A stretch of 43,648 nucleotides of DNA from an uncultured Spirochaetia bacterium. GTDB taxonomy: Bacteria > Spirochaetota > UBA6919 > CAYUUC01. The notes under the pieces were generated by a model that did no database searches, had not been told where the DNA came from, and worked only from the letters and a program-made list of their open reading frames with translations. Within the stretch, counting starts at the first letter, position 1, and each line of letters starts with the position of its first letter. The stretch is taken from contig CAYUUC010000002.1 in the NCBI GenBank assembly GCA_964447635.1, positions 1 to 43,648 on the forward strand, read 5' to 3'. Below, piece after piece: positions 7,166 to 43,648 of this stretch. Both the position numbers and the translations under genes were made by a program.

Positions 7166-7392
7166 GGTTTTCACCTATTATCTATTAAAAAATTCTTTGT
7201 AAATAGTCTAAATTTATTTTTTTATTTTCATTCCGTCAAGTCAATATCAATTATAAATCCCGGTTTTTATTTAATTAACAGGCTTTATGGAGATAATAGA
7301 AATTTAAGTCAATTTTGCTAAAACATATTATTTTATAAATTTGGTTAAATATCGTCTTATTAGTTAGACCAGTATAGATGTAGGAGGTGTAA

Positions 7393-8295
7393 ATGAAACA
7401 TAAATCTTTATTAGCCTATTTCATTATATTAATCACATTGTGTTCCATTTTTGTTATCCTAATGAAAGTCTTAGGTCAATCGGGTGTGTATCTTGCCCAG
7501 GCTTATATGCTGACACCAGCGATAGCAGCATTGCTAACACGGGCTTTATTTTATGATAAAGGTTTTTCAGATGCTAACCTTCGTTTTGGCAAACTCAAGC
7601 ATTACCTTATCTTCTGGCTAATCTCACTCGGTATTACAGCGTTATCATACATGATGTACACCGTTCTCGGTGCGGTGAGTTGGGATTTCACCGGAGGAGC
7701 TCTCCTGAGTAAGCTTCAAGAGCAGTTTGCCATGACCGGTCAAAACATAGATGAGACTTTACCACCGGGTTTTACACCCCAGATGATGATAATACTCTTT
7801 ACAATAGGTGGTTTAACCGTTTTCAATTTACTTCCGGGTATAATAACCGGTTTTGGTGAAGAATTCGGGCATCGTGGCTTCATGTTCCCACAACTGTACA
7901 AGATTAAACCCTGGTTTGCTTTTATCATTGGAGGTACGATTTGGTTTGCTTGGCATTTGCCTCTGTCTTTCGTTAGTGGTCAAGAGATAACGATTAATCC
8001 TGAATATTTCCTTAATCTGCTTATCTTGCTTGCAGGGAGTCTATGCACCTTCTTCTACCTTGCTTATGTATATGTTAAGACTGAGAGTGTTTTTGTGACG
8101 GCGATAGCACATATTGTTATGAACAACTCCGCTGCTTCCTTCTCATACTATGCTGTTATCGAAAACCAAACCTTAGCCAATCTCGGTTTAACCTTGACTA
8201 TGGTCTTCGTTGGGTTAATGATTTACTTGACTGGAGAGCATCGGGAATTTGAAAAATACTTTAATACTGATGGTATCGAAAATCAACAATATTGA
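7393..8295 (+). CDS. CPBP family intramembrane glutamic endopeptidase (CAAX protease-like)
   Basis: Polytopic membrane protein with motif 1 EEFGHRGF, then FAWHLP and AIAHIVMN. AGGAGG RBS. Confidence 0.85.
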   Translation: MKHKSLLAYFIILITLCSIFVILMKVLGQSGVYLAQAYMLTPAIAALLTRALFYDKGFSDANLRFGKLKHYLIFWLISLGITALSYMMYTVLGAVSWDFTGGALLSKLQEQFAMTGQNIDETLPPGFTPQMMIILFTIGGLTVFNLLPGIITGFGEEFGHRGFMFPQLYKIKPWFAFIIGGTIWFAWHLPLSFVSGQEITINPEYFLNLLILLAGSLCTFFYLAYVYVKTESVFVTAIAHIVMNNSAASFSYYAVIENQTLANLGLTLTMVFVGLMIYLTGEHREFEKYFNTDGIENQQY

Positions 8296-8328
8296 TTGTA
8301 TAGATTAGCTTTTGATAAGGGGAATTAT

Positions 8329-9258
8329 ATGAAATATACAATTTTTTATTTCTCTGGTACTGGCAATACAAAAATGATTACACGAAATCTTAAGAAAGAC
8401 ATTGAACAAAATGGTTATAATGTTAATCTCTACTCAATTGAGGATTTGGATGAGTATTCAAGTATCGCTTTAAAAGATACTGTAATTGGTATTGGCTTCC
8501 CTGTTTACAAATTCACATATCCCAGAATATTAAGTAAAGTATTTCCATTGTTGAGAAAAGCTGTTGAAGAAACATCAGATACGAAACTACCGTTTTTTGT
8601 TTACTCAACTTATTGCAGATTTGCTGCTAACAGTCTTCATCTTATGGCTAAGGATGTGGAGAAGTTAGGATATTCACTCATAGCTAAGAAGAGCTTCAAG
8701 TCCCCCTCTAACGGTATCGCCTCCATGAAAAACCCGGATGGCTATGAGTATAGGACGGTTATGTACTTTGAAAACCGCATTAACCTTAGTGTTAATGAGT
8801 TCTCTAAGGTTATAGAATCAAATGCGGTCAAGTTTTATAAATATGGTTATACTGAAAAGCATCATGGAAGTCCTTTAGATAAGCTAAGGATACATATCGT
8901 GGGTAAAATAGAAAAATCAAGATATCCTAAGCTCCAAATTGACTATTCGGCTTGTATTAAATGCGGAGTATGTGTAAAGGGTTGTCCTGATGATAACCTT
9001 GTGATGGATAGAGATGTGGTTATCAAGGATGATAGAAACTGCTTGCATTGCCTCAGATGTATGCATGGATGCCCAAAGCATGCGGTGACTTTTGGTAAAT
9101 TGACCAAAGGTCCATTGCGATATTCGAAAGATATCCGTGAAAAGCTTTATGAGAAAGCTATAAACACACCCATAAACTCACCAACACCTGATAATAAATG
9201 GATTAGGATAAAATGGACATTAAATAATATTAAATATTGGTTGTTAAAGAAGAATTGA
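8329..9258 (+). CDS. EFR1-family ferredoxin: flavodoxin-like domain fused to a 2x[4Fe-4S] ferredoxin domain
   Basis: N-terminus MKYTIFYFSGTGNTK (flavodoxin-like). Two CxxCxxCxxxCP motifs (CIKCGVCVKGCP, CLHCLRCMHGCP). I prefer the ATG at 8329 (AAGGGGA RBS) over the TTG at 8296. Confidence 0.8.
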   Translation: MKYTIFYFSGTGNTKMITRNLKKDIEQNGYNVNLYSIEDLDEYSSIALKDTVIGIGFPVYKFTYPRILSKVFPLLRKAVEETSDTKLPFFVYSTYCRFAANSLHLMAKDVEKLGYSLIAKKSFKSPSNGIASMKNPDGYEYRTVMYFENRINLSVNEFSKVIESNAVKFYKYGYTEKHHGSPLDKLRIHIVGKIEKSRYPKLQIDYSACIKCGVCVKGCPDDNLVMDRDVVIKDDRNCLHCLRCMHGCPKHAVTFGKLTKGPLRYSKDIREKLYEKAINTPINSPTPDNKWIRIKWTLNNIKYWLLKKN

Positions 9259-9499
9259 TGTCTATTTAAAAATCTTTTGATAGAATTTGAATATATTATT
9301 TTAGAAATCCTTTTCTCTTTTTCACTTTTATTTAATCCCATCTATTGATATCCATTTTATTTTTATTATTATATCAAAAAAGTAGCTTAATATTTGGTTT
9401 ATGGTTTTCAAAGGAAAAAATCATTATTTTTATACAATTTACACATTTGAGAAAAGCATAAACATATTTTAAAAAGTATAAAATTTAGGAGACAAATTT

Positions 9500-10666
9500 A
9501 TGGATATAAAAATACCTTCAGACATACTGCCTGATTCTACTTTTACATGTGGTCCAAGTCAGGGCCACCCGGAAATAAGAGAAGTTAAACTAAAAGATAC
9601 GCTTTTTGAAAGAAGCCATAGAGCATCTGATATAACAAAAAACGGTATGATAAAAGAGGCTACCGAGAACCTACGGGAATTACTTCACATTCCCAAAGAC
9701 TATGTCATCATGTTCTTCCTCGGTGGAGCTACCCCTGCACTCGATTCTGTATCATGGGGATTAACCAAGGATTCGATATCAGGTTTGAGATTCGGTTCTT
9801 TCTCGAATCTATGGGGGAAAAAGATTGCGAATAATCTTGATGAAAGTATAAAAAAGACATTTTACGATGCTGAAGAAGAGGGCAAGTTCCCCAGCCAAGA
9901 CCCGGACTGGAATGCAAGCCTGGTTCTATTGACCCCTAACGAGACGTCCATGGGTTTACATACTCCTAACGACTATCTGGAGATGGCATGGAGCAAGAAA
10001 GGTAAGGATACACTAATCGCTTGGGATTGTACCTCATGTGCTGGTGGGAGAGACCTTCCCCATGATAAGTACGATGCAATGGTCTTCTCACTGCAGAAAT
10101 GCTTCGGTGTCCCAGGAGGGACTGGTGTTCTTATATTAAGTCCAAGAGCCGTTGAAAGAGCAATGGAAGTAAAGAAGACACGAAATATACCATTCTGTTT
10201 AGACCTGCAGGAGCCAATCAAAAGGGCTACCGAGAAGTATCAAACCCTTAATACTCCATCTAACACTAATATATGGGTTATGAACGAATCCTGTAAGTGG
10301 ATGCTGAAAAATGGAGGGATTAAAGGTATGGACAAACTCTCCAGACAGCATTATGACTATATGATGGACTTCATCAAAAAATCAGACTACCTTGAACCTT
10401 ATGTTAAAGATGAGCGATTCCGTTCTTATGTTACGCTGACTATAGAAATCACTGACCCGAAGATTGAAGACACTACTCTGAATGGTTTTATTATGGCATC
10501 AGGTAAGGAAAACCTAAAAGACGGCATCAAAAAGTATAGCTCTGTTAAGACTAATTCACTGAGGGTTGCATGCTTCCCATATGTTGATATTAACGGTGTT
10601 GGGGAGTATGAAAAGTTGACCAAAACCATAGATTATATTGTAAATGAGATTAGAAAACAAAAATAA
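9500..10666 (+). CDS. serC: Phosphoserine aminotransferase (class V aminotransferase fold, long SerC type)
   Basis: PLP-lysine context FSLQKCFG. About 390 aa, typical of the long SerC type. Immediately upstream of a D-3-phosphoglycerate dehydrogenase gene. AGGAG RBS. Confidence 0.75.
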   Translation: MDIKIPSDILPDSTFTCGPSQGHPEIREVKLKDTLFERSHRASDITKNGMIKEATENLRELLHIPKDYVIMFFLGGATPALDSVSWGLTKDSISGLRFGSFSNLWGKKIANNLDESIKKTFYDAEEEGKFPSQDPDWNASLVLLTPNETSMGLHTPNDYLEMAWSKKGKDTLIAWDCTSCAGGRDLPHDKYDAMVFSLQKCFGVPGGTGVLILSPRAVERAMEVKKTRNIPFCLDLQEPIKRATEKYQTLNTPSNTNIWVMNESCKWMLKNGGIKGMDKLSRQHYDYMMDFIKKSDYLEPYVKDERFRSYVTLTIEITDPKIEDTTLNGFIMASGKENLKDGIKKYSSVKTNSLRVACFPYVDINGVGEYEKLTKTIDYIVNEIRKQK

Positions 10667-10683
10667 ATTATGGAGAAGAAAAA

Positions 10684-11637
10684 ATGAAAATCTTATTAGC
10701 TGATAAATTTCCTGAAAAATACCAACAGGTGCTTAAAGATAATGGTCATGATGTTACTTTCGACCCATCACTTAAAGAAAACACACTACCAGATGCTATA
10801 AAGGATAACAATGTCCTGGTGGTTCGTAGTACAAAAGTGACAAAACAAACCATAGACTCCGCTTCAGACTTAAATCTAATCATTAGGGCTGGGGCAGGAT
10901 ACAATACCATCGATATCGATTATGCCAAGGAAAAAGGCATACCGGTCTGCAACTGTCCGGGTATGAACTCTCTTGCCGTTGCAGAACTGGCTATGGCTAT
11001 GATATTGTCCTTAGATAGAAGAATCTATCACAATGTGAGAGACCTCAGAGCTAAAAAGTGGAATAAGAAGGAATACAGCAAAGCGGATGGTATCTATGGT
11101 AAATCAATCGGGGTTATTGGACTGGGACACATCGGAAGAGAGGTAGCCAGGAGAGCTGAAGCATTCGGTATGAAATTGCTTGGTTATGACCCATTCCTGA
11201 CTGAGGAAGACTTCAAGAAGATGAATGTTAAAAAATACGATGACTTATACAAAATGGTGCAAAATGCGGATATCATAACCATACACTTGCCTGAGAATGA
11301 ACATACGAGAGGATTAGTTGATGATAAGTTCTTCTCAAATATGAAGCAGGGAGCAACCATCGTGAATACCTCTAGAGGCGGTATCGTAAAGCAGGATGCA
11401 TTGCTTAAAGCAGTCAAGGAAAAAGACATAAAAGCAGGTATCGATGTCTACGAAAACGAACCAGATGCTAATGATAATGTATTCGACGATGAGATAACCC
11501 AAGTTGAGAACATCTATGGAACACATCACATCGGTGCTTCCACCCAACAAGCACAGAATGCTGTTGCTGAGATGGCAACTGAGATTATAGAGAAGTTTGA
11601 TAAGACCGGTGAAGCAATGAATAGAGTAAATCCATAA
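10684..11637 (+). CDS. serA: D-3-phosphoglycerate dehydrogenase, short form (D-isomer 2-hydroxyacid dehydrogenase family)
   Basis: NAD-binding GVIGLGHIGREVARR, catalytic region TSRGGIV...HHIGAST. 317 aa with no ACT domain. Adjacent to serC. Confidence 0.8.
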   Translation: MKILLADKFPEKYQQVLKDNGHDVTFDPSLKENTLPDAIKDNNVLVVRSTKVTKQTIDSASDLNLIIRAGAGYNTIDIDYAKEKGIPVCNCPGMNSLAVAELAMAMILSLDRRIYHNVRDLRAKKWNKKEYSKADGIYGKSIGVIGLGHIGREVARRAEAFGMKLLGYDPFLTEEDFKKMNVKKYDDLYKMVQNADIITIHLPENEHTRGLVDDKFFSNMKQGATIVNTSRGGIVKQDALLKAVKEKDIKAGIDVYENEPDANDNVFDDEITQVENIYGTHHIGASTQQAQNAVAEMATEIIEKFDKTGEAMNRVNP

Positions 11638-29520: not shown

Positions 29521-31689
29521 TCAATCCATTGTCAGGAAAGCCATTCTGAGTATCCTCAACTCACCATAATCTATCTCTTCGTTTAACTCCTCGAATATCG
29601 GCTTTAGTTTTCGACATCCAAGTTTGGTAAAAGCATTAAACACTCTACCCCTTCCATCTTCGTTTAGGAATGAGTAATTCAAGAAGCCATCCGACCTGAT
29701 CCGGTTTCCTTCACCATAGTATTTATATAAATGGGAAATCACAGTCTCCTGGGCTATTCCATACTTCTTCATTAAATCATCAATTGAATAGCCTTCATTA
29801 TAAAGTTCTCCTATGGTGATATACCTCTTTTTCAGCTTTGATTTAGCCTTTTGTTTGGGTGATTTGGATATCTTTTTGGGTTTCTCTACAAGGTTGTTTT
29901 CAGAACAGTATTCCGAGATTATGTCCATAAAAACCTTTCCATACTTATCATACTTGGTCTCACCTAAACCAATCATATTAAGCATTGATTGACGGGATTG
30001 GGGGTAATAATAGGACATTTCGATAAGTGAAGTATCATGGAATATTGTATAGGGGGGGATCTGGCTGGTATCGGCTATCTCTTTTCGCTTCTTCCTTAGT
30101 ATCTCGAACAACACCTTATCATATTCAACCTCCTCTTGCTTCTTTTCAATCGGTTTGACATCTATTTCCTCTAGCTGGGTGCCTAAGAATCTATCTTCAC
30201 CTCTGAATAGCTTCCACGCATCTCTTGTCAATTTGATACTTCCATACTCCTGGTCTCTTATCATCAGTCTTTCACGTAACAACTGCTGACCGATGTGTTT
30301 CCATTGCTTCTTAGTAAACTCCTTGCCAATACCATAAGTAGAAAGTTTATCATGTTGATTATCCATAACCTTTTTCGCAGTAGAACCCCGTAAGACATCG
30401 ATTATATGGTTAATACCGAAAAGTTCTCCCGTCCTCTTTACACATGAGAGGAACTTTTGAGCTGGTATCGTAAGGTCGATAAGCTCTTTACTACCTCCCA
30501 AACAATTATCACACATACTACAGTTACTATTATTATAATCCTCACCGAAGTAGTTGAGCAATTGTTTCCTGCGACAACCTACAGTTCTGGCAAAGTAAAG
30601 CAAGGACTCCAGGTGTAGCTTTGCTACATCCCTTTCATGTGGGTCAGACATGTTATTGATGAAGTATTCAATCTTCTTTACATCACCATAACTGTATAGG
30701 AGAAGACAATATGATTTAAGCCCATCCCGACCTGCTCTGCCTATCTGCTGATAGTAGCTTTCAAGGTTCTTTGGCAGGTCGTAATGAATGATGTATCTAA
30801 CATCCGGTTTATTGATGCCCATTCCAAAAGCTACTGTGGCGACAATGATGTCTATATCATCCTTAATAAACAATTCCTGGTTCAAAGCCCTTTCATCATG
30901 TTCCAGTCCGGCATGATAGGGTCTTGCTGAGAAACCTGCTTGGTTTAGTCTTTCGGCAAGTTCTTCCACCATTCTTCTGGTTAAGCAGTATATGATACCG
31001 GATTGGTTCGGGAACTTCTTGATATATTCGATGGTTTGGCTAGTTGAATCATTCTTAGGCATTACCTGTAGGAAGAGGTTTTTACGGTCAAAACTAGCTA
31101 TAAATTGGTTTGGGTCTTTGAAGGATAGTATATCTATAATATCATCCTGAACTCGAGGGGTGGCTGTTGCTGTTAGTGCAAGACATACCGCATCTGAAAA
31201 CATCTCCCGTACTTCCATAAGCTGACGATAATCCGGTCTGAAGTCATGCCCCCATTCCGATATACAATGAGCTTCGTCTATCGTTATACAGTCTACTTTA
31301 AGGGATGATAGAAAAGATGCAGTCTTCTCCTTAAGCAATCGTTCCGGAGCAAGATATAACAGTTTAGCTTTACCGGATAGTAAACGATTTATGTTGAGTC
31401 TGTATTCTTCAAGGGATAGAGAACTGTTAAGCAAAACAGCATCGATACCTATCTGGTTCATCTGTTCCACCTGGTCTTTCATAAGTGAAATGAGAGGTGA
31501 TATGACTATGGTTATACCCTCGAATATCTGGGATGGTATCTGATAACATATGGACTTTCCGCTTCCAGTAGGCATTATGGCAAGTGTGTCTCTTTTATTC
31601 AACACATTATTGATGATTTTTTCCTGAAGTGGGTGGAATTCTTCATAGCCAAAAGTCTTTTTTAGTATTAGTTTTGCCTGGTTTTTCAT
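29521..31689 (-). CDS. recQ: ATP-dependent DNA helicase RecQ with HRDC and an extra C-terminal HTH-like extension
   Basis: Motif I MPTGSGKS, motif II DEAHCISEWGHDFRP, Zn-binding CRRKQLLNYFGE...CSMCDNC, HRDC (PPYTIFHDTSLIEM). 722 aa, about 100 aa longer than E. coli RecQ. Confidence 0.93.
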   Translation of the reverse strand: MKNQAKLILKKTFGYEEFHPLQEKIINNVLNKRDTLAIMPTGSGKSICYQIPSQIFEGITIVISPLISLMKDQVEQMNQIGIDAVLLNSSLSLEEYRLNINRLLSGKAKLLYLAPERLLKEKTASFLSSLKVDCITIDEAHCISEWGHDFRPDYRQLMEVREMFSDAVCLALTATATPRVQDDIIDILSFKDPNQFIASFDRKNLFLQVMPKNDSTSQTIEYIKKFPNQSGIIYCLTRRMVEELAERLNQAGFSARPYHAGLEHDERALNQELFIKDDIDIIVATVAFGMGINKPDVRYIIHYDLPKNLESYYQQIGRAGRDGLKSYCLLLYSYGDVKKIEYFINNMSDPHERDVAKLHLESLLYFARTVGCRRKQLLNYFGEDYNNSNCSMCDNCLGGSKELIDLTIPAQKFLSCVKRTGELFGINHIIDVLRGSTAKKVMDNQHDKLSTYGIGKEFTKKQWKHIGQQLLRERLMIRDQEYGSIKLTRDAWKLFRGEDRFLGTQLEEIDVKPIEKKQEEVEYDKVLFEILRKKRKEIADTSQIPPYTIFHDTSLIEMSYYYPQSRQSMLNMIGLGETKYDKYGKVFMDIISEYCSENNLVEKPKKISKSPKQKAKSKLKKRYITIGELYNEGYSIDDLMKKYGIAQETVISHLYKYYGEGNRIRSDGFLNYSFLNEDGRGRVFNAFTKLGCRKLKPIFEELNEEIDYGELRILRMAFLTMD

Positions 31690-34640: not shown

Positions 34641-34826
34641 GATAATTATTACCTCTGAATAAAAAATGGATTATATTTTAATATATAATATTTATCAAAA
34701 TGCGGAAAAAAATACTGATTTTGACCAATTTTTTGTTATTTATTAATAAGGTTTAATAAAAAGTAAAAAAATATTGGTAGTGGTATATTTATAACTGATT
34801 AGTAAGGACACTTAGTTCTTCTCAAA

Positions 34827-34904
34827 GGAACATCGAGCAAGCATCGAACTGTTTGTATTCGCCATCTAGGATGGTGTGGTCATTTCGACTTCGCTCTTAT
34901 GACC
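34827..34904 (+). other. GC-rich structured element, copy A (candidate cis-regulatory leader RNA or palindromic repeat)
   Basis: Shares GGRACATCGAGC ... YCGAA ... GTCRTTTCGRCT ... CTC ... YGACC with copy B at 43324-43385. Two helices are supported by compensatory changes. It stands out as a GC island in a 336-bp AT-rich intergenic region. Confidence 0.45.
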
Positions 34905-34976
34905 TGATTAATCACAAACAAAATAACCATTACAAAAATATTAAATCATAAATGATAACCAAAGGAACGCAATTAT

Positions 34977-36722
34977 ATGGCAACTGAGAGAAATATAGCT
35001 GTTTTTCTTGATTTTGATAATATAAAGCTTGGTCTTGAAAAACAAAATATACAATTCGATATAGAACCTGTCTTTGATTATCTCAGTACAAAGGGTAAAA
35101 TCATCCTCTCTAAAGCTTATGGAGATTGGGATAAAATGTCTAATATCTCATATGAAGAACTCCAGGACAAAAAGAATATCAAAAAAAACCATATGCGTGA
35201 TCTTAAGAAGATTAAAGACCCCGAAGAAAAGGAGAAGAGGAAAAACCAGATAAAAACCAAGTTTAAAAATGTGGTTGACAGCATCAGAATTAAAAAGTCA
35301 AATACAATAAGAAAGATTAAAAGGCAACTGATTGAATATAGCTTCGATATCGTTGATATGCCTTCCAGAAGAAGCGGGAAAAACTTTTCCGATATACAAC
35401 TGGCGGTGGATTGTTTAGAGACCAGCATCTTTAATAAATCTATTGATACAATCGCTATTATATCCGGTGATAGCGACATGACACCGCTTATAAAAAAGAT
35501 AAGATATTATGGTTTGGAGGTTATTATTATTGGTGCTGAGGAGTCCACCAGTAGGATGCTTTCATCAGTGACGGATGTCTTTCGTTTTTTTAGCTTCCTT
35601 AATCTTAAAAAGATAGAGCCTTCTGTTATGAGGGAATCGCCATATCTTATATTGTGTAAGGCTTTAACACTATCAAGGTTAATATCCGGCTCGGATGTTC
35701 TTGAAAAAGGATTGGTAAATGAAAAGTTTAGACTATTGTCTCCAAAGAGCTATGGCAGGTATTACCCATTTGAGGGGCTTTTAGAGGATTTAGTAAAACA
35801 GCAGATAATCAAAATCTCCCTTTTGAAGGGAGATAAGCTAAAAGTATATGAGGATTCAAGTCTTGAACTACCCGCTATTAAACATCTTAAGTTTAATGTT
35901 TATTATAAGAATATTAAAGAGTTAAAAGAATATATAAAGCCATATCAGGAATTATTAACTGAATTTGATAATAATAAAGAAAAGCTGAAAAATTATATAA
36001 ATTCATTAATTATTGATTTGATTAATTATTCTCTTCTACCAGAGGATTATGAAAGTGTAATAATGGAAGGTTTCTTAAAATTGAACGAGAGTGATAGTAA
36101 TTATGATGATGCTTTGGAATTAGTAAATGATATATTAAACCATATGATTATGAGTAAGAAAATAACCTTTGAAGAACATGAAAAGATATATATCCCATAT
36201 TATCCAGAATATAACCAAAATAATACCATATACTTATTGAATAGAGAAATAGATAAGTTGAATAAGACTGTTAAAGAAACAGAGAAAGAGAAAAATATCC
36301 TAAAAAGCAAGATAGAAGATATAGAAGATGATAAAGAACTGTATAGAAAGTTAATTCATTCGATAAATATTATCCAGATGAAAGATAGAGACCTGCATCC
36401 CGCGATAGAAGAATTGACCTATCTATCTCAAATTCATAAATATCGAAAAGCGGCAAGCCTCTACTTGGGAAAAGCATATATGAAAATTGGGGAATATGAA
36501 AAAGCCATAGAAGTATATAACAAAATGGTAAATCATGGTGTAAAAAATACATATGTATATAATGTCTTGGGTACTGCTAATGTTAAGATAGGAAATTATA
36601 CCTCAGCTATGGAGAATTTCCAGAACTCGCTTATGCTAATACCAGACCAGCCAAGGATATTACATTATGTTAATGAATTAAGCCGATATTTCTCCGATAA
36701 TAATATGGTAAGCACTAATTAA
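34977..36722 (+). CDS. NYN/LabA-like (PIN-fold) nuclease domain protein with an OST-HTH/LOTUS-like segment, coiled coil and C-terminal TPRs
   Basis: NYN motifs IAVFLDFDNI, AYGDW, SDIQLAVD and IISGDSDMTPLIKKIRYYGLEVIIIG. C-terminal TPR (ASLYLGKAYMKIGEYEKAIEVYNKM...GNYTSAMENFQNSL). Confidence 0.75.
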   Translation: MATERNIAVFLDFDNIKLGLEKQNIQFDIEPVFDYLSTKGKIILSKAYGDWDKMSNISYEELQDKKNIKKNHMRDLKKIKDPEEKEKRKNQIKTKFKNVVDSIRIKKSNTIRKIKRQLIEYSFDIVDMPSRRSGKNFSDIQLAVDCLETSIFNKSIDTIAIISGDSDMTPLIKKIRYYGLEVIIIGAEESTSRMLSSVTDVFRFFSFLNLKKIEPSVMRESPYLILCKALTLSRLISGSDVLEKGLVNEKFRLLSPKSYGRYYPFEGLLEDLVKQQIIKISLLKGDKLKVYEDSSLELPAIKHLKFNVYYKNIKELKEYIKPYQELLTEFDNNKEKLKNYINSLIIDLINYSLLPEDYESVIMEGFLKLNESDSNYDDALELVNDILNHMIMSKKITFEEHEKIYIPYYPEYNQNNTIYLLNREIDKLNKTVKETEKEKNILKSKIEDIEDDKELYRKLIHSINIIQMKDRDLHPAIEELTYLSQIHKYRKAASLYLGKAYMKIGEYEKAIEVYNKMVNHGVKNTYVYNVLGTANVKIGNYTSAMENFQNSLMLIPDQPRILHYVNELSRYFSDNNMVSTN

Positions 36723-36759
36723 TGATATTAGTTATATTCCCACTTTTAACGGAGTAAAT

Positions 36760-39700
36760 ATGCAGGAGTCCAAAAACCATCTCCAACAAAGGGACAAAGA
36801 TAAAAAGAGAGCTTCTACTCCACTATTAAAAAGTTTTATATCATTCATACCACAAGACCTGGTAAGAAAGATACTACAAAATCCTAATATAAAAATCATC
36901 GAAACATCGGAATGGATTGAAGGAGCTATTCTCTTTTCCGATATTAGCGGATTCACCAATATGAGCAAATCATTATCAAATTATGGACTTCGTGGAACTG
37001 AGATGATGGGTAAGATATTGAATACATACCTATCAAAAATGTCCGAGCTTATATACAAACATGAAGGAATAATCCAGAAAATAGCTGGTGATGCTCTTAC
37101 TGTCTTCTTTGAAAAGAACACAAATGTTCAATGGAAAATTTCTATACTAAAAGCAATTGAATGTTCTTTTAATATGCAGAAACTAATGAATAGCTTCCGT
37201 AGGATAAAGACAATAGCAGGTGAGTTTGACTTAACAATGAAAATCGGTATTAGTTCGGGGAGATTATTCAGCGGGGTTCTGGGGTCTTATGATTTTGGAA
37301 TAGAGCCATTCCTTATCGGTAAAGCCATAGACCTCGCCGTGGGAGCGGAACATCAAGCCTCTCCCGGGGAAATATGGATAGAAGAAGAAAGCTTTAAGCG
37401 TGTAGAAAACTATATTAAAGTTATCCGGCATAAAGATAAATATTATAGAATAGCTCATAGATTAGTTAATGAACCTCCAGCAAAAAAGGTTGAAGAGAAT
37501 AAGTTTTCGTATAAACTTACCCATGAAGAGAAACAAACCATTATAAACGAAATCAGTAGTTGTGTCCCTTCGCCAATCGCTAAGAGATTGGAATTAGGCT
37601 ATCATGAGTTCTTGGGGGAAGACCGTAAGACGACTATATTATTCATAAATTTTGAAGGTTTGAGAATGGATGATGAAGACTTTGAAGATAAGCTTCGTTA
37701 TTATTACAATTCCATGCAAAAAATCATCACCCAGTATCGAGGCTTTCTTTATGAGTTTGAAAGTGGTGATAAGGGTTATAAAATCATCGCTGTTTTCGGT
37801 AGTCCTACTTCTACGGAGGATAACGAAGGATATGCTGTTCAGTGTGCTAATGCGATAATCCAGGCTGGTAAAGACATATCATGGATAAAGTCCCAAAACA
37901 TAGGAATAACCACCGGGGATGTCTTTGCTGGACTGATTGGAACTCCTCTGTTGAGAAGGTACGCTCTGATAGGTGATAAGGTTAACCTCGCCGCACGGTT
38001 AATGTCTATAGCAGAGGATAATACCGTCTTAGTAGATGAGGTTACTTATAGACTAACCAGGGATAGGTTTGTTTATGAAGCTCTTCCACCAAAAAAAATA
38101 AAGGGACAGGAAGACCTGATTAATACATATATATATAAATCCATCAGAAGTACTGAAAAAAAGAAGACCGTCAAAGAGTTATCATACATGGTTGGTAGAG
38201 AAGAAGAGTCGAAAAGGTTCATTCAGCTTTACTCTGAAGTTGCGAATAATAATGGTCAGATCGTTTCGGTAATAGGTGAGATGGGAATGGGTAAGCGGTC
38301 CTTAATCAAAGCCTTTACCAATATGGCTGAGAAGGATGGTATTAAACCATATGAGGCTGTATGTTATAATTACAGCAGGCAAATTCCATATTTCGGCTGG
38401 ATAAAGATATTTAATGATATAACAGGGATCAAGGATTCCGATTCCAATCAGGATAAGCTGGAAAAGTTAAGGTCTACTTTAAATGAACTTGTCCCGCAAG
38501 AGGTGAACAAAACTCCAATCCTCGCCAATATGCTGGGGATAGATATGGGTGAGAATGAATGGAGCAAGAACCTAGACCCAGCTGTTAGAAAGTCTAACCT
38601 TATTGATTTAATGAGTAATGTTATTATAAATCTATCCAAGAAAACTGTAGTCTTTATTATATTATATGACTTACATTGGAGTAACTCATCTACATTAGAT
38701 TTCTTGCTGTTTTTGTCCCGTAATATAAAGAATGAACGGGTAATGATAGTTACTTCCTACAGACCCTTTACCGACAAGCCCCCTGAGAAGCTGATGGAGC
38801 TGAAGAAAACCGACTATCATAATACTATTGTATTAAATGAACTCAATTCTGAACAAACCATGGAATTTATTCAGAATAAGTGGAAGATTCAACAAATTCC
38901 AGATAGTTTCAAGAATATTATAAAGAAGAATGTGGGTGGGAATCCCTACTTCATAGAAACTCTGATGACTTCCCTTATTAATACAAAACAACTACTATAC
39001 AATGAGGAAGAAGGACAATACTACTTCCCCAAGGGTAAATCAGAAGATATAGACATACCGAATAACATGCAAAACCTTATCATTAGTCAGATGGATAGGT
39101 TGGATGAGACCAGCAAACTATTGCTAAAAGTCTCATCAGTAGCTGGTATGAACTTTAATAGACAGCTTATAAAATGGATATCACCAATTAAGATAGACAC
39201 TAACATACTTGAGGATAAACTATCATATCTTTGTGAACAAGGCTTACTGGAGAGGGAGAAGAAGGATGGAGAGATTGCTTATTCCTTTAGAAACGAGTTA
39301 ACCTTAGAGACTGCTTATAGTACTTTACCCTTCTCACAGAGGAAACACCTTCATGAAGCAACAGCAGAAACATACGAGAAGATATATAATGATAGATTGG
39401 ATGCATATTATGAAATACTTGCTCATCATTATAGTTTCACAGAGAACATTGAAAAACAATTACGATATATAAAGTTAGCTGGTAAGAAGGCTAGGAATGC
39501 TTATGCCAACAAAGAGTCCATCGAATACTTCACTCAATTATCCGATATAATAGAGAAGAAGCTGAAATCCCTTTCCGATGCTACATCAGCATACTGGGAG
39601 AATATGATAAGGGAGGCTTTCGACACTGCTATTGAGCTTTCCGATATAAAGAGGTTTATGGGAGAAATGAACCAATCTAAGGAATGGCTGGAGAAAGCAG

Positions 39701-40959
39701 AAGATATACTGGTTAAGATAACCGATGAACCAAGGAGATATACCTTATTAAGAAGCTTTGGTGAATGGTTTGAGTTTTCCGACCATTATATACAAGCAAT
39801 GGAATACTACCTTAGAGCTTATAAATGTATATCCCAACAGAATGATATTGAGAAGACCAGCTTATCAGCAGGACATCTAGGTAACCTCTATCGAACTATA
39901 GGTGTCTACGAAAAGGCATTGAACCACTATAAGGAAGCCGCTGATCTAGCAAAAAGTGTTGGTGATATTATGATGAGAGGTAGATGGCTAGGTAATATTG
40001 GGATAATAAAGTCCAACCAGGGTGAATATGATGGGGCTTTGGAATACTACTTTAAGGCTTTGAAGATATCTCGTGATGAGAATGACAAATCCAGAGAAGC
40101 GGCATGGTTATCTCTCATTGCTGAGGTGTATGTAGCACGAGCTAGATATGATGAAGCATTGAAGTTCGGTAATAAGTCTTTGGAAGTGGCAGAGGCTATT
40201 GGATATAAGAGAAGCATAGTTATGACCTTAAACACTATCGGGAATACATACCGGTTCTTAGGTAAGTATTCAGATGCATTACAAGCTCATCAAAAAGCAT
40301 TGGACATCGCTAGCCTTATAGGTGCGATAAACCTTGAAGTTATATGCAGAGGGGAGATTGGCGAGATTTATCGATTCCAGCAAAACTGGGATGAAGCGAT
40401 GGAGTTTTATAAGAATGCCTTTAGCATGGCGAAGTCACTAGGTGATAGATATAACCAGGCATTATGGGAAAGAGCGATAGGTATTGTCCTTTATCAATCA
40501 CCTAATTCAAAAGTTAAGAAAGCAAGACAGCACTTAAGCAATGCCCTGGAGTTGGCTAAACAGATTGGTCATCGTAAGTTAAGGGCAGAGATAGAGATAC
40601 ATTTCGGTAATGCTATTGCTGTTGATGGTGAGTTGGATGAAGCAGAAAGGATAATCAGGAATGGACTTATTATGGCACAAAAGATAAAGCATCCCGGTTT
40701 AAGTATATGGGGAAAGCGGATGCTAGGTATAATACTGATAAAGTTAGGCAGGAAAAAGGAAGGGGCACAGGAATTGCTTGATGCTCTTAAAGAAAATGAA
40801 AAATTAGGTTTGACCAAGGATATAGCAGAATGCTCCTTGGAGTTAGGAAGGGAGTTAAGAGACCGAAGCTATCTGGAAAGAGCATTGAAATTGTTTAAAG
40901 AAATTGGTTTGACAAAGAGTATGAAGCAGGTTGAGGAATTCCTTACAGAATTGGATTAA
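36760..40959 (+). CDS. Tandem class III adenylate/guanylate cyclase, AAA_16/STAND NTPase and TPR protein (1399 aa)
   Basis: Cyclase domain 1 (ILFSDISGFT, KIAGDALTVFF). Cyclase domain 2 (ILFINFEGL, YALIGDKVNLAARLMS). P-loop GEMGMGKRS, Walker B FIILYDLHW. About 500 aa of TPR repeats at the C-terminus. Confidence 0.85.
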   Translation: MQESKNHLQQRDKDKKRASTPLLKSFISFIPQDLVRKILQNPNIKIIETSEWIEGAILFSDISGFTNMSKSLSNYGLRGTEMMGKILNTYLSKMSELIYKHEGIIQKIAGDALTVFFEKNTNVQWKISILKAIECSFNMQKLMNSFRRIKTIAGEFDLTMKIGISSGRLFSGVLGSYDFGIEPFLIGKAIDLAVGAEHQASPGEIWIEEESFKRVENYIKVIRHKDKYYRIAHRLVNEPPAKKVEENKFSYKLTHEEKQTIINEISSCVPSPIAKRLELGYHEFLGEDRKTTILFINFEGLRMDDEDFEDKLRYYYNSMQKIITQYRGFLYEFESGDKGYKIIAVFGSPTSTEDNEGYAVQCANAIIQAGKDISWIKSQNIGITTGDVFAGLIGTPLLRRYALIGDKVNLAARLMSIAEDNTVLVDEVTYRLTRDRFVYEALPPKKIKGQEDLINTYIYKSIRSTEKKKTVKELSYMVGREEESKRFIQLYSEVANNNGQIVSVIGEMGMGKRSLIKAFTNMAEKDGIKPYEAVCYNYSRQIPYFGWIKIFNDITGIKDSDSNQDKLEKLRSTLNELVPQEVNKTPILANMLGIDMGENEWSKNLDPAVRKSNLIDLMSNVIINLSKKTVVFIILYDLHWSNSSTLDFLLFLSRNIKNERVMIVTSYRPFTDKPPEKLMELKKTDYHNTIVLNELNSEQTMEFIQNKWKIQQIPDSFKNIIKKNVGGNPYFIETLMTSLINTKQLLYNEEEGQYYFPKGKSEDIDIPNNMQNLIISQMDRLDETSKLLLKVSSVAGMNFNRQLIKWISPIKIDTNILEDKLSYLCEQGLLEREKKDGEIAYSFRNELTLETAYSTLPFSQRKHLHEATAETYEKIYNDRLDAYYEILAHHYSFTENIEKQLRYIKLAGKKARNAYANKESIEYFTQLSDIIEKKLKSLSDATSAYWENMIREAFDTAIELSDIKRFMGEMNQSKEWLEKAEDILVKITDEPRRYTLLRSFGEWFEFSDHYIQAMEYYLRAYKCISQQNDIEKTSLSAGHLGNLYRTIGVYEKALNHYKEAADLAKSVGDIMMRGRWLGNIGIIKSNQGEYDGALEYYFKALKISRDENDKSREAAWLSLIAEVYVARARYDEALKFGNKSLEVAEAIGYKRSIVMTLNTIGNTYRFLGKYSDALQAHQKALDIASLIGAINLEVICRGEIGEIYRFQQNWDEAMEFYKNAFSMAKSLGDRYNQALWERAIGIVLYQSPNSKVKKARQHLSNALELAKQIGHRKLRAEIEIHFGNAIAVDGELDEAERIIRNGLIMAQKIKHPGLSIWGKRMLGIILIKLGRKKEGAQELLDALKENEKLGLTKDIAECSLELGRELRDRSYLERALKLFKEIGLTKSMKQVEEFLTELD

Positions 40960-43226
40960 GGTTGTGAATATTTCTCCTGTAGTTCCGCAGATTCAAAAGT
41001 ACAATTTTCTAGACCACCAATGACTTCATTTTCTTCAATCTGGTTTTCCATTGTTTCCACCTTAGCGAGGATTTGAGGATAACCAGGGTATGTACTGGCT
41101 ATCTTCTTGGCAAGTTTCTCGGCATTCCAATAAGCCTCAAAAGCGGAACACAAGTCACCTATTACCTCATATGCTTTTCCCATAAGCAGGAACATGTTAG
41201 TATATATAGAGATATCACTAATGCTGGTTGGTTTATATATCTGATTTATTTCATTATAAGCTAGGGTAGCTTTTTTCAGATATTGTATAGCCTTTTCATA
41301 TTTAGATTGGTTTATGGAGTATATTCTACCGATTTCGCTGTTAATTCTAATATATAGTTTAGTATAGCGGATTCTCACTGTCTCATATTCATTTAATTCC
41401 ATATCCTTAACTTGATTAATATAGTTATTAAATATTAAATAATCATCGAGTATCTTATTACTTTGTATAGGTGGATATTCGCTATTAGAGAGCTTTGATA
41501 TATGTGATAATACTCTACTGTCGATATAGTTATATATATGAGTGAGGTAATCTTCTATTATATAGCTTTTGTTAATCAATTCTGCACCAAGATAATCCAT
41601 AACCCTTAGCTGGGATGGACTCTCCAGATTAATATTATCTAATGCTTTAATTAATAGGATTTTCCCATCTATCAATTGATAAAGACCTTTTTCTTCATTT
41701 AGTAAAGTGTTTTCCCTCTCATCTAGTGTTTCTTCGATAATACTGAGAATTTTTCCCGCTTCTGAGTATCGATTAAACTTCCATAGATAATCATATAAAT
41801 CGGGATAAATATCGAATATTTGTTTTGTGGTAAGGATTTGAGGCTTTATATCCATGAGAATAGTGACTCCCGCGTCTTCTTTGCCCGTTCTAAAATATGA
41901 ATAGCCGATGAAGTATCTAAACTCAATCACTTCAGGGGAAGTAAGGAATTCAAATGAGTAATCCATTGACTCATAGGTTTGAATTAACTCTTTATATTGG
42001 TTTTGGTTGAATAACTCTCTTAGTCTAACATAAGAGTCATTAAAAATCTCCGAAGGAGTTGGTGGTGTTTTAGACATCTCAGAGGATAATGAATTGGATA
42101 AAATAATGATTGCGATTATTGAAAGTATCAGAACAGGTATAAGTATATAGTTAATAACTTTTATATTTTTTATTTGTAGTATTTTTTTATTTAGTTTGGT
42201 CTTTTCATCCTTGCTCTTTATCTTTTCTCTTATTGTGCTTCTAACAGCATTGAATATAGCATCAAATTCTGTATCTATTATTTTTTCCTGTTGTTTGTTT
42301 TTATTCTCCAACTTGGCTTTCTCATCGGTAAGCTTTTCTATTTTACTTTCCATATTGGTTTGCATCTTTTCTCTATCATGCAATCTTTCAATATCAATTT
42401 TATGTTCTTCGATAATCTTTTCATATTCTTGTCTGGTTATGGTTAGTTTGGATTCAAGCTCTTCTTTTTCTTCTTTAAGGCTATCGATAATTTTTTGATT
42501 ATCGTATGATTTATCAATATTAGCGGTTTTATATTTACTTTGATATTTTAGTATTTGATAGGTTCTTTCTGTTTCTGGAGTTAAAACAGAATCTATGGGT
42601 AGATTTTGGTTTAATAGGAAATGGAATAGTAGGAATAAATCTTCCTGAGAGAGTTTTTCATGATGAGGTGCTTTCCTTTGCTGGTAGAATTTTTTGAAAA
42701 GGCTGGCCTTAAGTTCCTTTCTATGTATGATATTCATCTGTTTGTGATGAATAATATCTTCCAGCTTTAATTCTTTTTGTGGAGATACGATGCGGTAGTT
42801 ATCATTGCTTATAACAACCATTCCCCATATACCAAATTTGAGGTCAGTCTTTTTGTATAGATGGTTACTTATCTTCCCTTCTCTGAACTTATCCAAGAAC
42901 CAATTTTTAGCTAGATTTGGATATTCAATAGCTCGGTATAAGGGGTCATATTCATCTTTATTCTGTGATTGGAAGATTAGATTATTATGTTCGCTTTTTA
43001 TCAAGGATACATTTTTAACTTCGAGGAAAAAGACACCGTATTGGTTAATAATTACAAAATCTATCTGTGTACCGCGTATTTTCTTATTGTTTTTAATGAA
43101 TGAGAAATATGTATCTTTATCACCGCATATACACAACCAATTTTCTGGTAAAGATGTTAGTACTTCTGCTGTACTTCTTTCTTCAGCTGGGATTTTACTA
43201 TTTTTAGAAAGTGGTGTAACAATCAT
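40956..43226 (-). CDS. NERD domain, coiled coil, single TM and TPR-like domain protein (756 aa)
   Basis: NERD core RGTQIDFVIINQYGVFFLEVKN. Lys/Glu-rich coiled coil (aa ~245-350). TM VINYILIPVLILSIIAIIILSN. TPR-like C-terminus (YEKAIQYLKKATLAY..., MGKAYEVIGDLCSAFEAYWNAEKLAKK). Confidence 0.75.
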   Translation of the reverse strand: MIVTPLSKNSKIPAEERSTAEVLTSLPENWLCICGDKDTYFSFIKNNKKIRGTQIDFVIINQYGVFFLEVKNVSLIKSEHNNLIFQSQNKDEYDPLYRAIEYPNLAKNWFLDKFREGKISNHLYKKTDLKFGIWGMVVISNDNYRIVSPQKELKLEDIIHHKQMNIIHRKELKASLFKKFYQQRKAPHHEKLSQEDLFLLFHFLLNQNLPIDSVLTPETERTYQILKYQSKYKTANIDKSYDNQKIIDSLKEEKEELESKLTITRQEYEKIIEEHKIDIERLHDREKMQTNMESKIEKLTDEKAKLENKNKQQEKIIDTEFDAIFNAVRSTIREKIKSKDEKTKLNKKILQIKNIKVINYILIPVLILSIIAIIILSNSLSSEMSKTPPTPSEIFNDSYVRLRELFNQNQYKELIQTYESMDYSFEFLTSPEVIEFRYFIGYSYFRTGKEDAGVTILMDIKPQILTTKQIFDIYPDLYDYLWKFNRYSEAGKILSIIEETLDERENTLLNEEKGLYQLIDGKILLIKALDNINLESPSQLRVMDYLGAELINKSYIIEDYLTHIYNYIDSRVLSHISKLSNSEYPPIQSNKILDDYLIFNNYINQVKDMELNEYETVRIRYTKLYIRINSEIGRIYSINQSKYEKAIQYLKKATLAYNEINQIYKPTSISDISIYTNMFLLMGKAYEVIGDLCSAFEAYWNAEKLAKKIASTYPGYPQILAKVETMENQIEENEVIGGLENCTFESAELQEKYSQP

Positions 43227-43323
43227 CTATTATGGTAACTCCATTTAGTATATATATTTTGGAACGCTTTTATATCAAATGTTGTTGAAAGTAAATAAAA
43301 CCTTATCCTGATATATTTTCTAT

Positions 43324-43385
43324 GGGACATCGAGCTGGAGCCGAAGGGAACATGGGATATGTCGTTTCGGCTATTCTCAACGACC
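43324..43385 (+). other. GC-rich structured element, copy B
   Basis: Same conserved blocks and helices as copy A. 6-bp hairpin GTCGTT (43361-43366) / AACGAC (43379-43384). AGCCGAA (43339-43345) pairs with TTCGGCT (43366-43372). Confidence 0.45.
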
Positions 43386-43648
43386 GTTTATAAGAAATTT
43401 TTTAGATTATCAACAACAATTCACTAAAGAGCGTTTAGAAATTATCATTCTATATAAGATTAATGCATTTATATGGGATACAAAATATGCAAATAAACTG
43501 ATACTAATTAATTAATAAACATTTAATATGTTTAATATGGATAAGTTAAGCTTAGATTAGAAAATATTAATAAATAATTATTGGAATATAATAACAAGAT
43601 TTTCATATATAATGTGTATTATTCGTATATAATTATAAATAAGATTAT

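Follow-up and report, generated by a model that had tools for sequence, protein, structure and literature searches.

Mammalian soluble adenylyl cyclase (sAC, ADCY10) carries two cyclase domains on a single chain, and the full-length human enzyme is reported to have a P-loop (residues 516-523) followed by TPR motifs (PMC3475452). The role of this STAND/TPR tail is a standing question for the soluble adenylyl cyclases of mammals and bacteria alike. Cyclic nucleotide monophosphate (cNMP) cyclases are also recurrent parts of NTPase-based conflict systems (PMC7159879). Here we analyze a bacterial protein of this kind, a tandem cyclase with a STAND module and a TPR tail, together with its neighbours in a 43,648-nucleotide (nt) stretch of DNA (the window) from an uncultured Spirochaetia bacterium (assembly GCA_964447635.1, contig CAYUUC010000002.1). 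The cyclase gene lies just downstream of a gene for a predicted RNase that combines a NYN domain with TPRs (NYN-TPR), and it converges on a gene for a membrane protein with a NERD domain, a coiled coil, a transmembrane (TM) helix and a TPR-like C-terminus. An earlier note, made from the sequence of the window, had presented these genes as a three-gene cassette. We find that the linkage is firmly one of two genes, NYN-TPR and then cyclase, and that the NERD gene, though often adjacent, can part from the pair. What is new here is a NYN-TPR partner that is always encoded next to the cyclase, together with a decayed NTPase; the central sAC-type cyclase is of a kind already known. The reading we favour, tentatively and at a little less than even confidence, is that the core of the locus is a two-gene operon encoding a lineage-specific cyclic AMP (cAMP)/RNase regulatory pair, vertically inherited and not a mobile defence island.

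Linkage of the NYN-TPR, cyclase and NERD genes

The NYN-TPR gene directly precedes the cyclase gene in six of six contigs that offer context, namely the window (locus L005), L002, L004, L016, L017 and L018. The 37-nt spacer reported by the earlier note is indeed present in the window; it holds a GGAG 8 nt before the cyclase ATG, and a terminator scan of it returned no site. Because the spacer is short, carries a GGAG and lacks a terminator-like site, the two genes are probably co-transcribed. Short spacers and the same co-directional order recur in the other five contigs, and the left flank of the pair varies among loci, being formed by arginine decarboxylase, LVIVD or hpf/NDK genes.

In the window, in L002 and in L003, the NERD and cyclase genes converge and are therefore not co-transcribed; in the window the two stop codons share 4 nt, the TTAA at 40956-40959 that had been pointed out before. 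In L007 it is the NYN-TPR gene on which the NERD gene converges, and no cyclase gene separates the two. In L099 the NERD gene is unlinked and adjoins a peptidase gene and truB, and in L004 and L016 genes other than NERD lie downstream of the cyclase gene. Overall, the NERD gene adjoins a NYN or cyclase gene in four of the five family loci. The three-gene cassette of the earlier note thus survives as a NYN-cyclase pair, while obligate membership of the NERD gene fails at L099, L004 and L016.

Judged from the homologues recovered, all three families are tiny and are confined to one Spirochaetota clade of uncultured members. The cyclase clade has seven members, four of them full-length proteins at 59-79% identity and three more coming from NYN contigs; beyond the clade, identity drops to 35% and then to 29% or less. 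The full-length NYN-TPR family numbers about eight, one of which (P0132) carries the label 'Spirochaetota bacterium'. The NERD family comprises seven proteins, and a profile search with this family in 1.84 billion representatives returned 11.

We compared these loci with more distant ones, which were returned by profile scans of genome and metagenome contigs with the clade alignment; the scans did not return the clade itself. The distant set consists of 4 loci from genome contigs (Solirubrobacterales, Bacteroidetes) and 80 from metagenome contigs (22-29% identity). At these ~84 cyclase-STAND loci, no open reading frame (ORF) matched our in-house NYN and NERD profiles, and the immediate neighbours of the cyclase-STAND genes are varied. 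When 79 immediate neighbours from 60 of the distant loci were run against Pfam, NYN and NERD were absent among the 25 commonest families. Further, neither a NYN nor a NERD gene is present around the closest outgroup cyclase, which is 35% identical. The co-occurrence that the earlier note had proposed to look for is seen for NYN and cyclase within the clade, and for neither NYN nor NERD at the distant loci. Distant NERD-TM-TPR relatives, for their part, stand alone among housekeeping genes.

Since all instances fall in one narrow clade, it could be argued that the genes, three or four in number and lineage-specific, are neighbours by descent, with no functional coupling, and that the cyclase is a stand-alone sAC-like signalling protein. 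Such an account would be at ease with the solitary distant NERD relatives, with the varied neighbours of distant cyclase-STAND genes and with the separate transcription of the convergent NERD and cyclase genes; it would also be at ease with the right flank, where DUF5312, HEAT, FecR and PadR genes are likewise syntenic between the window and L002. We nevertheless consider it unlikely. The NYN-cyclase order persists despite three left flanks and varying downstream genes, the three families match one another in an extremely narrow distribution, NERD and NYN remain adjacent in L007 despite its rearrangement, and the loss of NTPase motifs described below is specific to the clade and coincides with the NYN partner.

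On the far side of the NERD gene, and divergent from it, lies a gene for a DUF5312 protein at all four loci that offer context (L005, L002, L003 and L007). This protein has 674 amino acids (aa), is Lys/Glu-rich and lacks a TM helix; in the window genome and in L002, its gene is followed by HEAT, FecR-like and PadR genes. In the literature we found no mention of DUF5312 and no description of a NYN-TPR/cyclase pairing. The constancy of the NERD-DUF5312 arrangement, the parting of NERD from NYN and cyclase in L099 and the cyclase genes without a NERD neighbour in L004 and L016 would suit a locus made of two modules that merely abut, a cytoplasmic NYN and cyclase pair and a separate NERD-TM-TPR and DUF5312 pair that senses the envelope; so would the C-terminal domain of the NERD protein, which the positive-inside rule places in the periplasm. 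Against this stand the usual place of the NERD gene beside NYN or cyclase, the absence of a DUF5312 neighbour from the distant NERD relatives, and the fact that DUF5312 has no assigned function, so that the pairing explains little. We regard two separate modules as quite improbable.

At one relative without a NERD neighbour (L004), the gene convergent with the cyclase gene (7349-10894, minus strand) encodes a 1181-aa protein that has no Pfam or PADLOC match and resembles neither the NERD nor the DUF5312 proteins. In L007, three to four tandem units of ~27 nt (ATGTTGAGTAAGAACTGATTAGCTTTATT) lie at ~1740-1860, between a gene for an LRR protein and the NERD gene.

Domains of the three proteins

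The profile searches that the earlier note had recommended support all of the principal domains (NYN, Guanylate_cyc, AAA_16, NERD and TPR). In the 1399-aa cyclase protein, Pfam places Guanylate_cyc in two stretches (3.2e-25), and a phmmer search of PDB with the first 462 aa gives human sAC (4cm2/4clf) as the best match, at an E-value of 6e-32. The alignment is colinear, with aa 51-209 corresponding to sAC 37-191 (C1) and aa 281-457 to sAC 282-460 (C2). Cyclase homology domain 1 (CHD1) keeps the metal-binding D61 and D111 as well as K107, the equivalent of sAC Lys95, and is without the Asn/Arg pair; domain 2 (CHD2) has no metal Asp and keeps the substrate residue K338 (in DKG) together with N409 and R413. 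All six of these residues are invariant in the clade. By their residues, the two domains are complementary and are predicted to form one complete composite active site, as in sAC. The position of sAC Thr405 is taken by A402 (among 116 family members it is T in 73, G in 21 and A in 17), and a lysine with a small residue at the specificity positions points to the adenylyl type of class IIIb. Lys95 and Arg176 of sAC, its bicarbonate site, correspond here to K107 and to an invariant valine, Val194. The bicarbonate site therefore appears not to be kept, its Lys being present and its Arg replaced by Val.

Because more than 1300 prokaryotic homologues have the same tandem-cyclase-AAA-TPR architecture, the central protein belongs to a known and abundant kind; by its domain order it is a probable bacterial counterpart of full-length mammalian sAC. 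The earlier note had correctly read tandem class III cyclase domains followed by STAND and TPR parts, and had missed this likeness. The P-loop, too, is placed much as reported for human sAC: it occupies aa 506-513, ~50 aa after C2.

The STAND and TPR domains are borne out by Pfam (AAA_16 6.6e-16, TPR_12 7e-38, TPR_MalT 2.4e-12), and NCBIfam adds partial matches, all below cut-offs, to AfsR and to a TOMM kinase/cyclase fusion protein. The NTPase motifs, however, are degenerate. Walker A reads GEMGMGKRS and Walker B reads FIILYD. Within the clade, Walker A has the form GxxGxGK[R/G/K] in seven of seven members and Walker B the form hhhh[Y/N]D in the four members that are readable; by contrast, distant homologues have GK[S/T] in 93 of 97 and [E/D]D in 61 of 65. 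To judge from these alignments, loss of the Walker A Ser/Thr and of the first acidic Walker B residue is specific to this clade. Within the protein, conservation is also lowest in the STAND module, with a mean pairwise identity of 0.53, compared with 0.68-0.69 for the cyclase domains. The TPR array equals the cyclase domains in this respect (0.69, with 48% invariant columns). A conserved TPR array joined to a decayed NTPase fits a scaffold for a conserved partner, and not an NTP-driven switch with a fast-evolving sensor.

This conservation pattern bears on a reading close to that of the earlier note, a three-component anti-phage or abortive-infection system in which the STAND-TPR part senses an invader, the cyclase makes a messenger, and the NYN and NERD proteins are the effectors. 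STAND defence proteins generally need an intact NTPase, and here both Walker motifs are degenerate; moreover, the supposed TPR sensor is as conserved as the enzymes. Both points argue against such a system, to which we return below.

The NYN domain of the upstream protein is recognized by Pfam (PF01936) at 3.3e-27, with 96.2 bits against a cut-off of 24.2. Its acidic motifs FLDFDN, SDIQLAVD and SGDSD show no variation within the family, and D12, D14, N15, D139, D145, D165 and D167 are invariant among six members. These are the acidic residues that the earlier note had found in place, and on their strength the protein is predicted to be a metal-dependent RNase with its acidic residues intact. 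A Lys-rich helical insert of 65 aa (aa ~56-122) splits the NYN core. The core has a mean pairwise identity of 0.77, as does the NERD core, and both appear from these alignments to be under strong constraint. PDB 2qip, a NYN/LabA-like protein, matches the NYN protein at 2.7e-4. The coiled coil and TPRs proposed for the remainder of the protein are confirmed, the former at aa ~436-467 and the latter as three C-terminal repeats at aa ~474-575, where Pfam reports TPR_1, TPR_2, TPR_8, TPR_11 and TPR_19.

The OST-HTH/LOTUS segment that had been suggested between the NYN domain and the coiled coil fares differently at the levels of sequence and fold. Pfam at E<=10 found no match to PF12872 on four family segments, and hhalign against the OST-HTH-containing parts of P0134-P0137 gave probabilities of only 0.3-3% (0.3% and 2.9%). 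The AlphaFold model (mean predicted local distance difference test score, pLDDT, 78) does place two modules of alpha-beta-alpha-alpha-beta-beta, winged-helix-like topology after the NYN domain, at aa 222-293 and 334-407, and the closest homologues outside the NYN-TPR family are NYN+OST-HTH proteins. We therefore treat an OST-HTH/LOTUS identity as a fold-level possibility only, suggested by the model. Foldseek with the whole protein returned TPR proteins as best matches; because TPR parts dominate such whole-protein matches, Foldseek is uninformative on the winged-helix-like modules and likewise on the NERD part of the third protein.

That third protein matches Pfam NERD (PF08378) at 1.7e-7, with 32.1 bits against a cut-off of 22.1, and its PD-(D/E)xK-like motif, D56...E69xK71, is invariant in seven sequences. 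In the AlphaFold model, built on a seven-sequence alignment, the NERD domain itself is modelled poorly, with low confidence, whereas a coiled coil is seen at aa 241-345 and the C-terminus is a confident alpha-repeat whose best PDB folds, by Foldseek, are the TPR domains of LGN/Pins and APC. A PDB sequence search with the NERD family profile gave no meaningful match and no solved relative. A single hydrophobic segment is common to all seven members; 4-7 Lys/Arg immediately precede it and 0-2 follow. The four-part architecture described by the earlier note is thus upheld by profile, model and hydrophobicity scan. Since positive charges precede the TM helix, the positive-inside rule puts the NERD domain and coiled coil in the cytoplasm, and the TPR-like domain is predicted to be periplasmic. 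It would therefore make no contact with the cytoplasmic TPRs of the other two proteins.

All three proteins end in TPRs, as the earlier note had stressed, yet one of the three ends is predicted to lie across the membrane, and the idea of coupling through TPR contacts loses its NERD leg. The topology also weakens the defence reading, in which the NERD protein would be an effector. A related proposal is that the scaffold cyclase and the NYN protein form a complex through their TPRs that is tied to a NERD sensor, giving a signal-to-nuclease pathway, possibly for abortive infection or stress suicide, in which protein contacts, with no canonical cyclic-nucleotide receptor, would couple cAMP synthesis to the cleavage of RNA or DNA. 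We hold this to be decidedly unlikely.

Surroundings of the locus and the question of defence

The features discussed here are collected below. The three ORFs lie where the earlier note had placed them.

Features of the locus and of related loci. Coordinates are those of the window unless a locus is named.
Feature	Coordinates	Strand	Description
NYN-TPR gene	34977-36722	+	581 aa; predicted RNase, NYN-family (PIN-like)
NYN-cyclase spacer	36723-36759	+	37 nt; GGAG ribosome-binding site; no terminator-like site
Cyclase-STAND-TPR gene	36760-40959	+	1399 aa
Cyclase homology domain 1 (C1-like)	36910-37434	+	aa ~51-225; alignment to human sAC 37-191
Cyclase homology domain 2 (C2-like)	37615-38139	+	aa ~286-460; alignment to human sAC 282-460
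STAND module	38167-39639	+	aa ~470-960; AAA_16 and helical/winged-helix part; degenerate NTPase motifs
TPR array	39640-40959	+	aa ~961-1399; highly conserved
NERD-coiled coil-TM-TPR gene	40956-43226	-	756 aa; convergent with cyclase gene
NERD domain	43226-42867	-	aa 1-120; PD-ExK-like; predicted cytoplasmic
TM helix	42173-42075	-	aa ~352-384; hydrophobicity scan
TPR-like superhelix	42056-41022	-	aa ~391-735; predicted periplasmic
GC-rich element copy 1	34816-34905		Upstream of NYN gene
GC-rich element copy 2	43313-43395		Same orientation as copy 1; between NERD and DUF5312 genes
Shorter related GC-rich copy	L004 14330-14389	-	Upstream of unrelated MCP gene, another spirochaete contig
DUF5312 gene	L005 7310-9334 (-); L002 15131-17158; L003 7016-9001; L007 2-307		In L005, just past window end

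At its left the block is bordered by genes for a pyruvoyl arginine decarboxylase and a spermidine synthase, the polyamine genes that the earlier note had named. The ORF-free AT-rich region it had placed at the right proves to be the beginning of a divergent intergenic region, 667 nt long, which the window end truncates; on the full contig, the DUF5312 gene comes next. The rest of the window is housekeeping in character (FeoB, ETF, acyl-CoA dehydrogenase, FabH, RecQ, an ABC transporter and polyamine synthesis). No GC anomaly is seen at the locus from the composition of the window, nor are mobile-element genes seen around it. Identity to L002 is 70-79% for the cassette genes and 46-79% for the right-flank genes compared, a range that includes that of the cassette; by this comparison, the locus diverges at the same rate as its flanks. 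Neither the setting nor the divergence is what a mobile defence system would lead one to expect.

Two copies of a GC-rich element of 80-90 nt do bracket the block, as had been noticed, but neither their description as structured nor a role as cassette boundary holds. Folding of both copies on the plus strand gave no significant structure (z -0.9 and -0.6), and an alignment of the three copies showed no covariation. A known riboswitch or small RNA was considered and rejected, there being no Rfam match to the whole window at the gathering threshold or in permissive scans of both intergenic regions. The element is absent from the orthologous intergenic regions of relatives and a related copy lies elsewhere, in L004, so the elements are not cassette boundaries; attachment sites of a mobile cassette were likewise rejected, since relatives without the element keep the synteny of the right flank from DUF5312 onward. 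The element is most likely an intergenic repeat of dispersed type.

PADLOC returned only generic PycC, TPR and NYN matches at the locus, with no match to the NERD protein or to the flanking genes, so that the check proposed earlier turned up no named defence system. The PycC models, which are class III cyclase models, match CHD1 at 6.5e-19 and weaker, and the NYN domain matches the defence-candidate model PDLC01154 and HEC-09. No Avs, CBASS or Pycsar effector model was matched in PADLOC, and neither Pfam nor PADLOC gave a match to a CD-NTase or Cas10 synthase or to a SAVED/CARF effector. With Pfam, we found no cNMP-binding, CARF or SAVED domain in the three proteins or their neighbours, the rest of the genomes not having been searched; to this extent the earlier note's remark that no known cNMP receptor domain is present is confirmed. 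No phage or plasmid record has this architecture. A phage family without assigned function, phrog_25255, matches CHD2 and STAND (aa 286-924) at 1.5e-53, and a tblastn search of 50,697 phage records at 1e-10 found no homologue.

Elsewhere in the window, the RecQ gene (29521-31689, minus strand) matches PADLOC DpdF models very strongly, at 1e-224. This candidate was rejected: the protein passes the NCBIfam RecQ equivalog cut-off, and the DpdF match is explained by RecQ homology. The neighbours scanned, which cover part of the window, suggest no Dpd system.

At three of the distant loci (L050 8746-10422, L052 7494-9167 and L058 9745-11415), the gene next to the cyclase-STAND gene, on the same strand, encodes a cNMP_binding and patatin phospholipase protein. 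The cyclase-STAND proteins of these loci are 23-24% identical to that of the window. In these pairs, a sAC-like cyclase is joined by a recognisable cNMP-receptor effector; the window locus has no such receptor.

How likely, then, is the defence system set out above? Two predicted nucleases with intact motifs adjoin a cyclase-STAND-TPR protein, the PycC, PDLC01154 and HEC-09 matches point in the same direction, and the NERD gene stays by the cyclase or NYN gene despite the rearrangement in L007. There are also general precedents, in the recurrence of cNMP cyclases in NTPase-based conflict systems (PMC7159879) and in the patatin pairs of the other lineage. Set against these are the lack of a recognized receptor domain or effector model, the NERD gene that is unlinked in L099 and not downstream of the cyclase in L004 and L016, the absence of the architecture from phages and plasmids, and the points of sequence, topology and setting already given. 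An invader-sensing system of three components is in our judgment improbable. The chain that the earlier note had drawn, from STAND-TPR switch to messenger to nuclease effectors, is unsupported, and several findings stand in its way: no receptor was found, the Walker motifs are degenerate, the TPRs are conserved and the context is housekeeping.

We favour a vertically inherited regulatory module because no receptor was found, the PADLOC matches are generic, the context is housekeeping, the divergence is flank-like and there is no phage or plasmid match. In the regulatory pair as we picture it, the cyclase would make cAMP at its single active site, and the STAND-TPR tail, no longer an NTP-hydrolysing switch, would bind a conserved partner in the cell, as its scaffold or receptor. 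The best candidate for that partner would be the NYN-TPR protein, whose gene is probably co-transcribed, such that one complex could couple RNA cleavage or processing to cAMP synthesis. Receptors specified by other parts of the genome would respond to the cAMP. A looser associate would be the NERD membrane protein, together with DUF5312; it may feed a periplasmic or envelope signal into the pathway, although this is the weaker link.

Several points weigh against the regulatory pair. The comparison sample covers ~7 lineages, all of them metagenome-assembled genomes (MAGs) or metagenome contigs, and shared descent could account in part for the probable co-transcription of NYN and cyclase in so few related genomes. 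The NERD-NYN adjacency in L007 hints that all three genes may be linked after all. The generic PycC, defence-candidate NYN and HEC-09 matches, together with phrog_25255, leave a conflict role possible, and the receptor search stopped at the neighbouring genes.

For the standing question of the sAC tail, the clade offers three handles. The tail combines decayed NTPase motifs with a strongly conserved TPR array; a TPR-bearing RNase, always encoded just upstream, provides a concrete candidate partner; and the two proteins, if they interact, would exemplify a coupling of cAMP synthesis to RNA cleavage in which no cNMP receptor domain takes part. If they do not, the locus is merely another lineage-specific neighbourhood of a very common signalling protein.

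Comparison with described systems

Avs/AVAST proteins share with the window protein the order of an N-terminal enzymatic domain, STAND and a C-terminal TPR region. No Avs model was matched, however, and a cyclase stands here in place of a cell-killing effector; the degenerate NTPase, the highly conserved TPR array and the housekeeping context also differ from Avs. The likeness to Pycsar and CBASS lies in a class III cyclase that scores on PycC and in the adjacent predicted nucleases and membrane protein. PycC is a single-domain cyclase, whereas here a tandem, pseudo-heterodimeric cyclase is fused to STAND-TPR; and unlike Pycsar and CBASS, the locus has no cNMP-binding effector (TM or TIR) found adjacent and no CD-NTase.

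With LabA/limkain/MARF1-like RNases of the NYN and OST-HTH type, the NYN-TPR protein shares the NYN acidic residues and, in the model, two winged-helix-like modules. It differs from them in giving no OST-HTH sequence signal, in its Lys-rich insert, in its C-terminal coiled coil and TPRs, and in having a cyclase gene as obligate neighbour. The NERD protein resembles other NERD proteins (PF08378) in a profile score above cut-off and an invariant D...ExK, but its architecture of NERD, coiled coil, TM helix and predicted periplasmic TPR-like domain sets it apart and is very rare, at 11 proteins in the 1.84 billion representatives.

With STAND regulators of the MalT and AfsR type, the window protein shares an output domain at the N-terminus, followed by the AAA_16 NTPase and by TPRs resembling those of MalT; the output here is a cyclase and not a DNA-binding domain, and the NTPase motifs are degenerate. 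The likeness to sAC/ADCY10 lies in two cyclase domains per chain, colinear C1 and C2, a predicted single composite site, and a P-loop placed much as reported for the human enzyme and followed by a helical/TPR region; the window protein departs from sAC at the Arg176 position, where it has Val. Two features distinguish it from the other bacterial sAC-type homologues: the probably co-transcribed NYN-TPR gene, unseen at the ~84 other loci, and the loss, in this clade only, of the Ser/Thr of Walker A and of the first acidic residue of Walker B.

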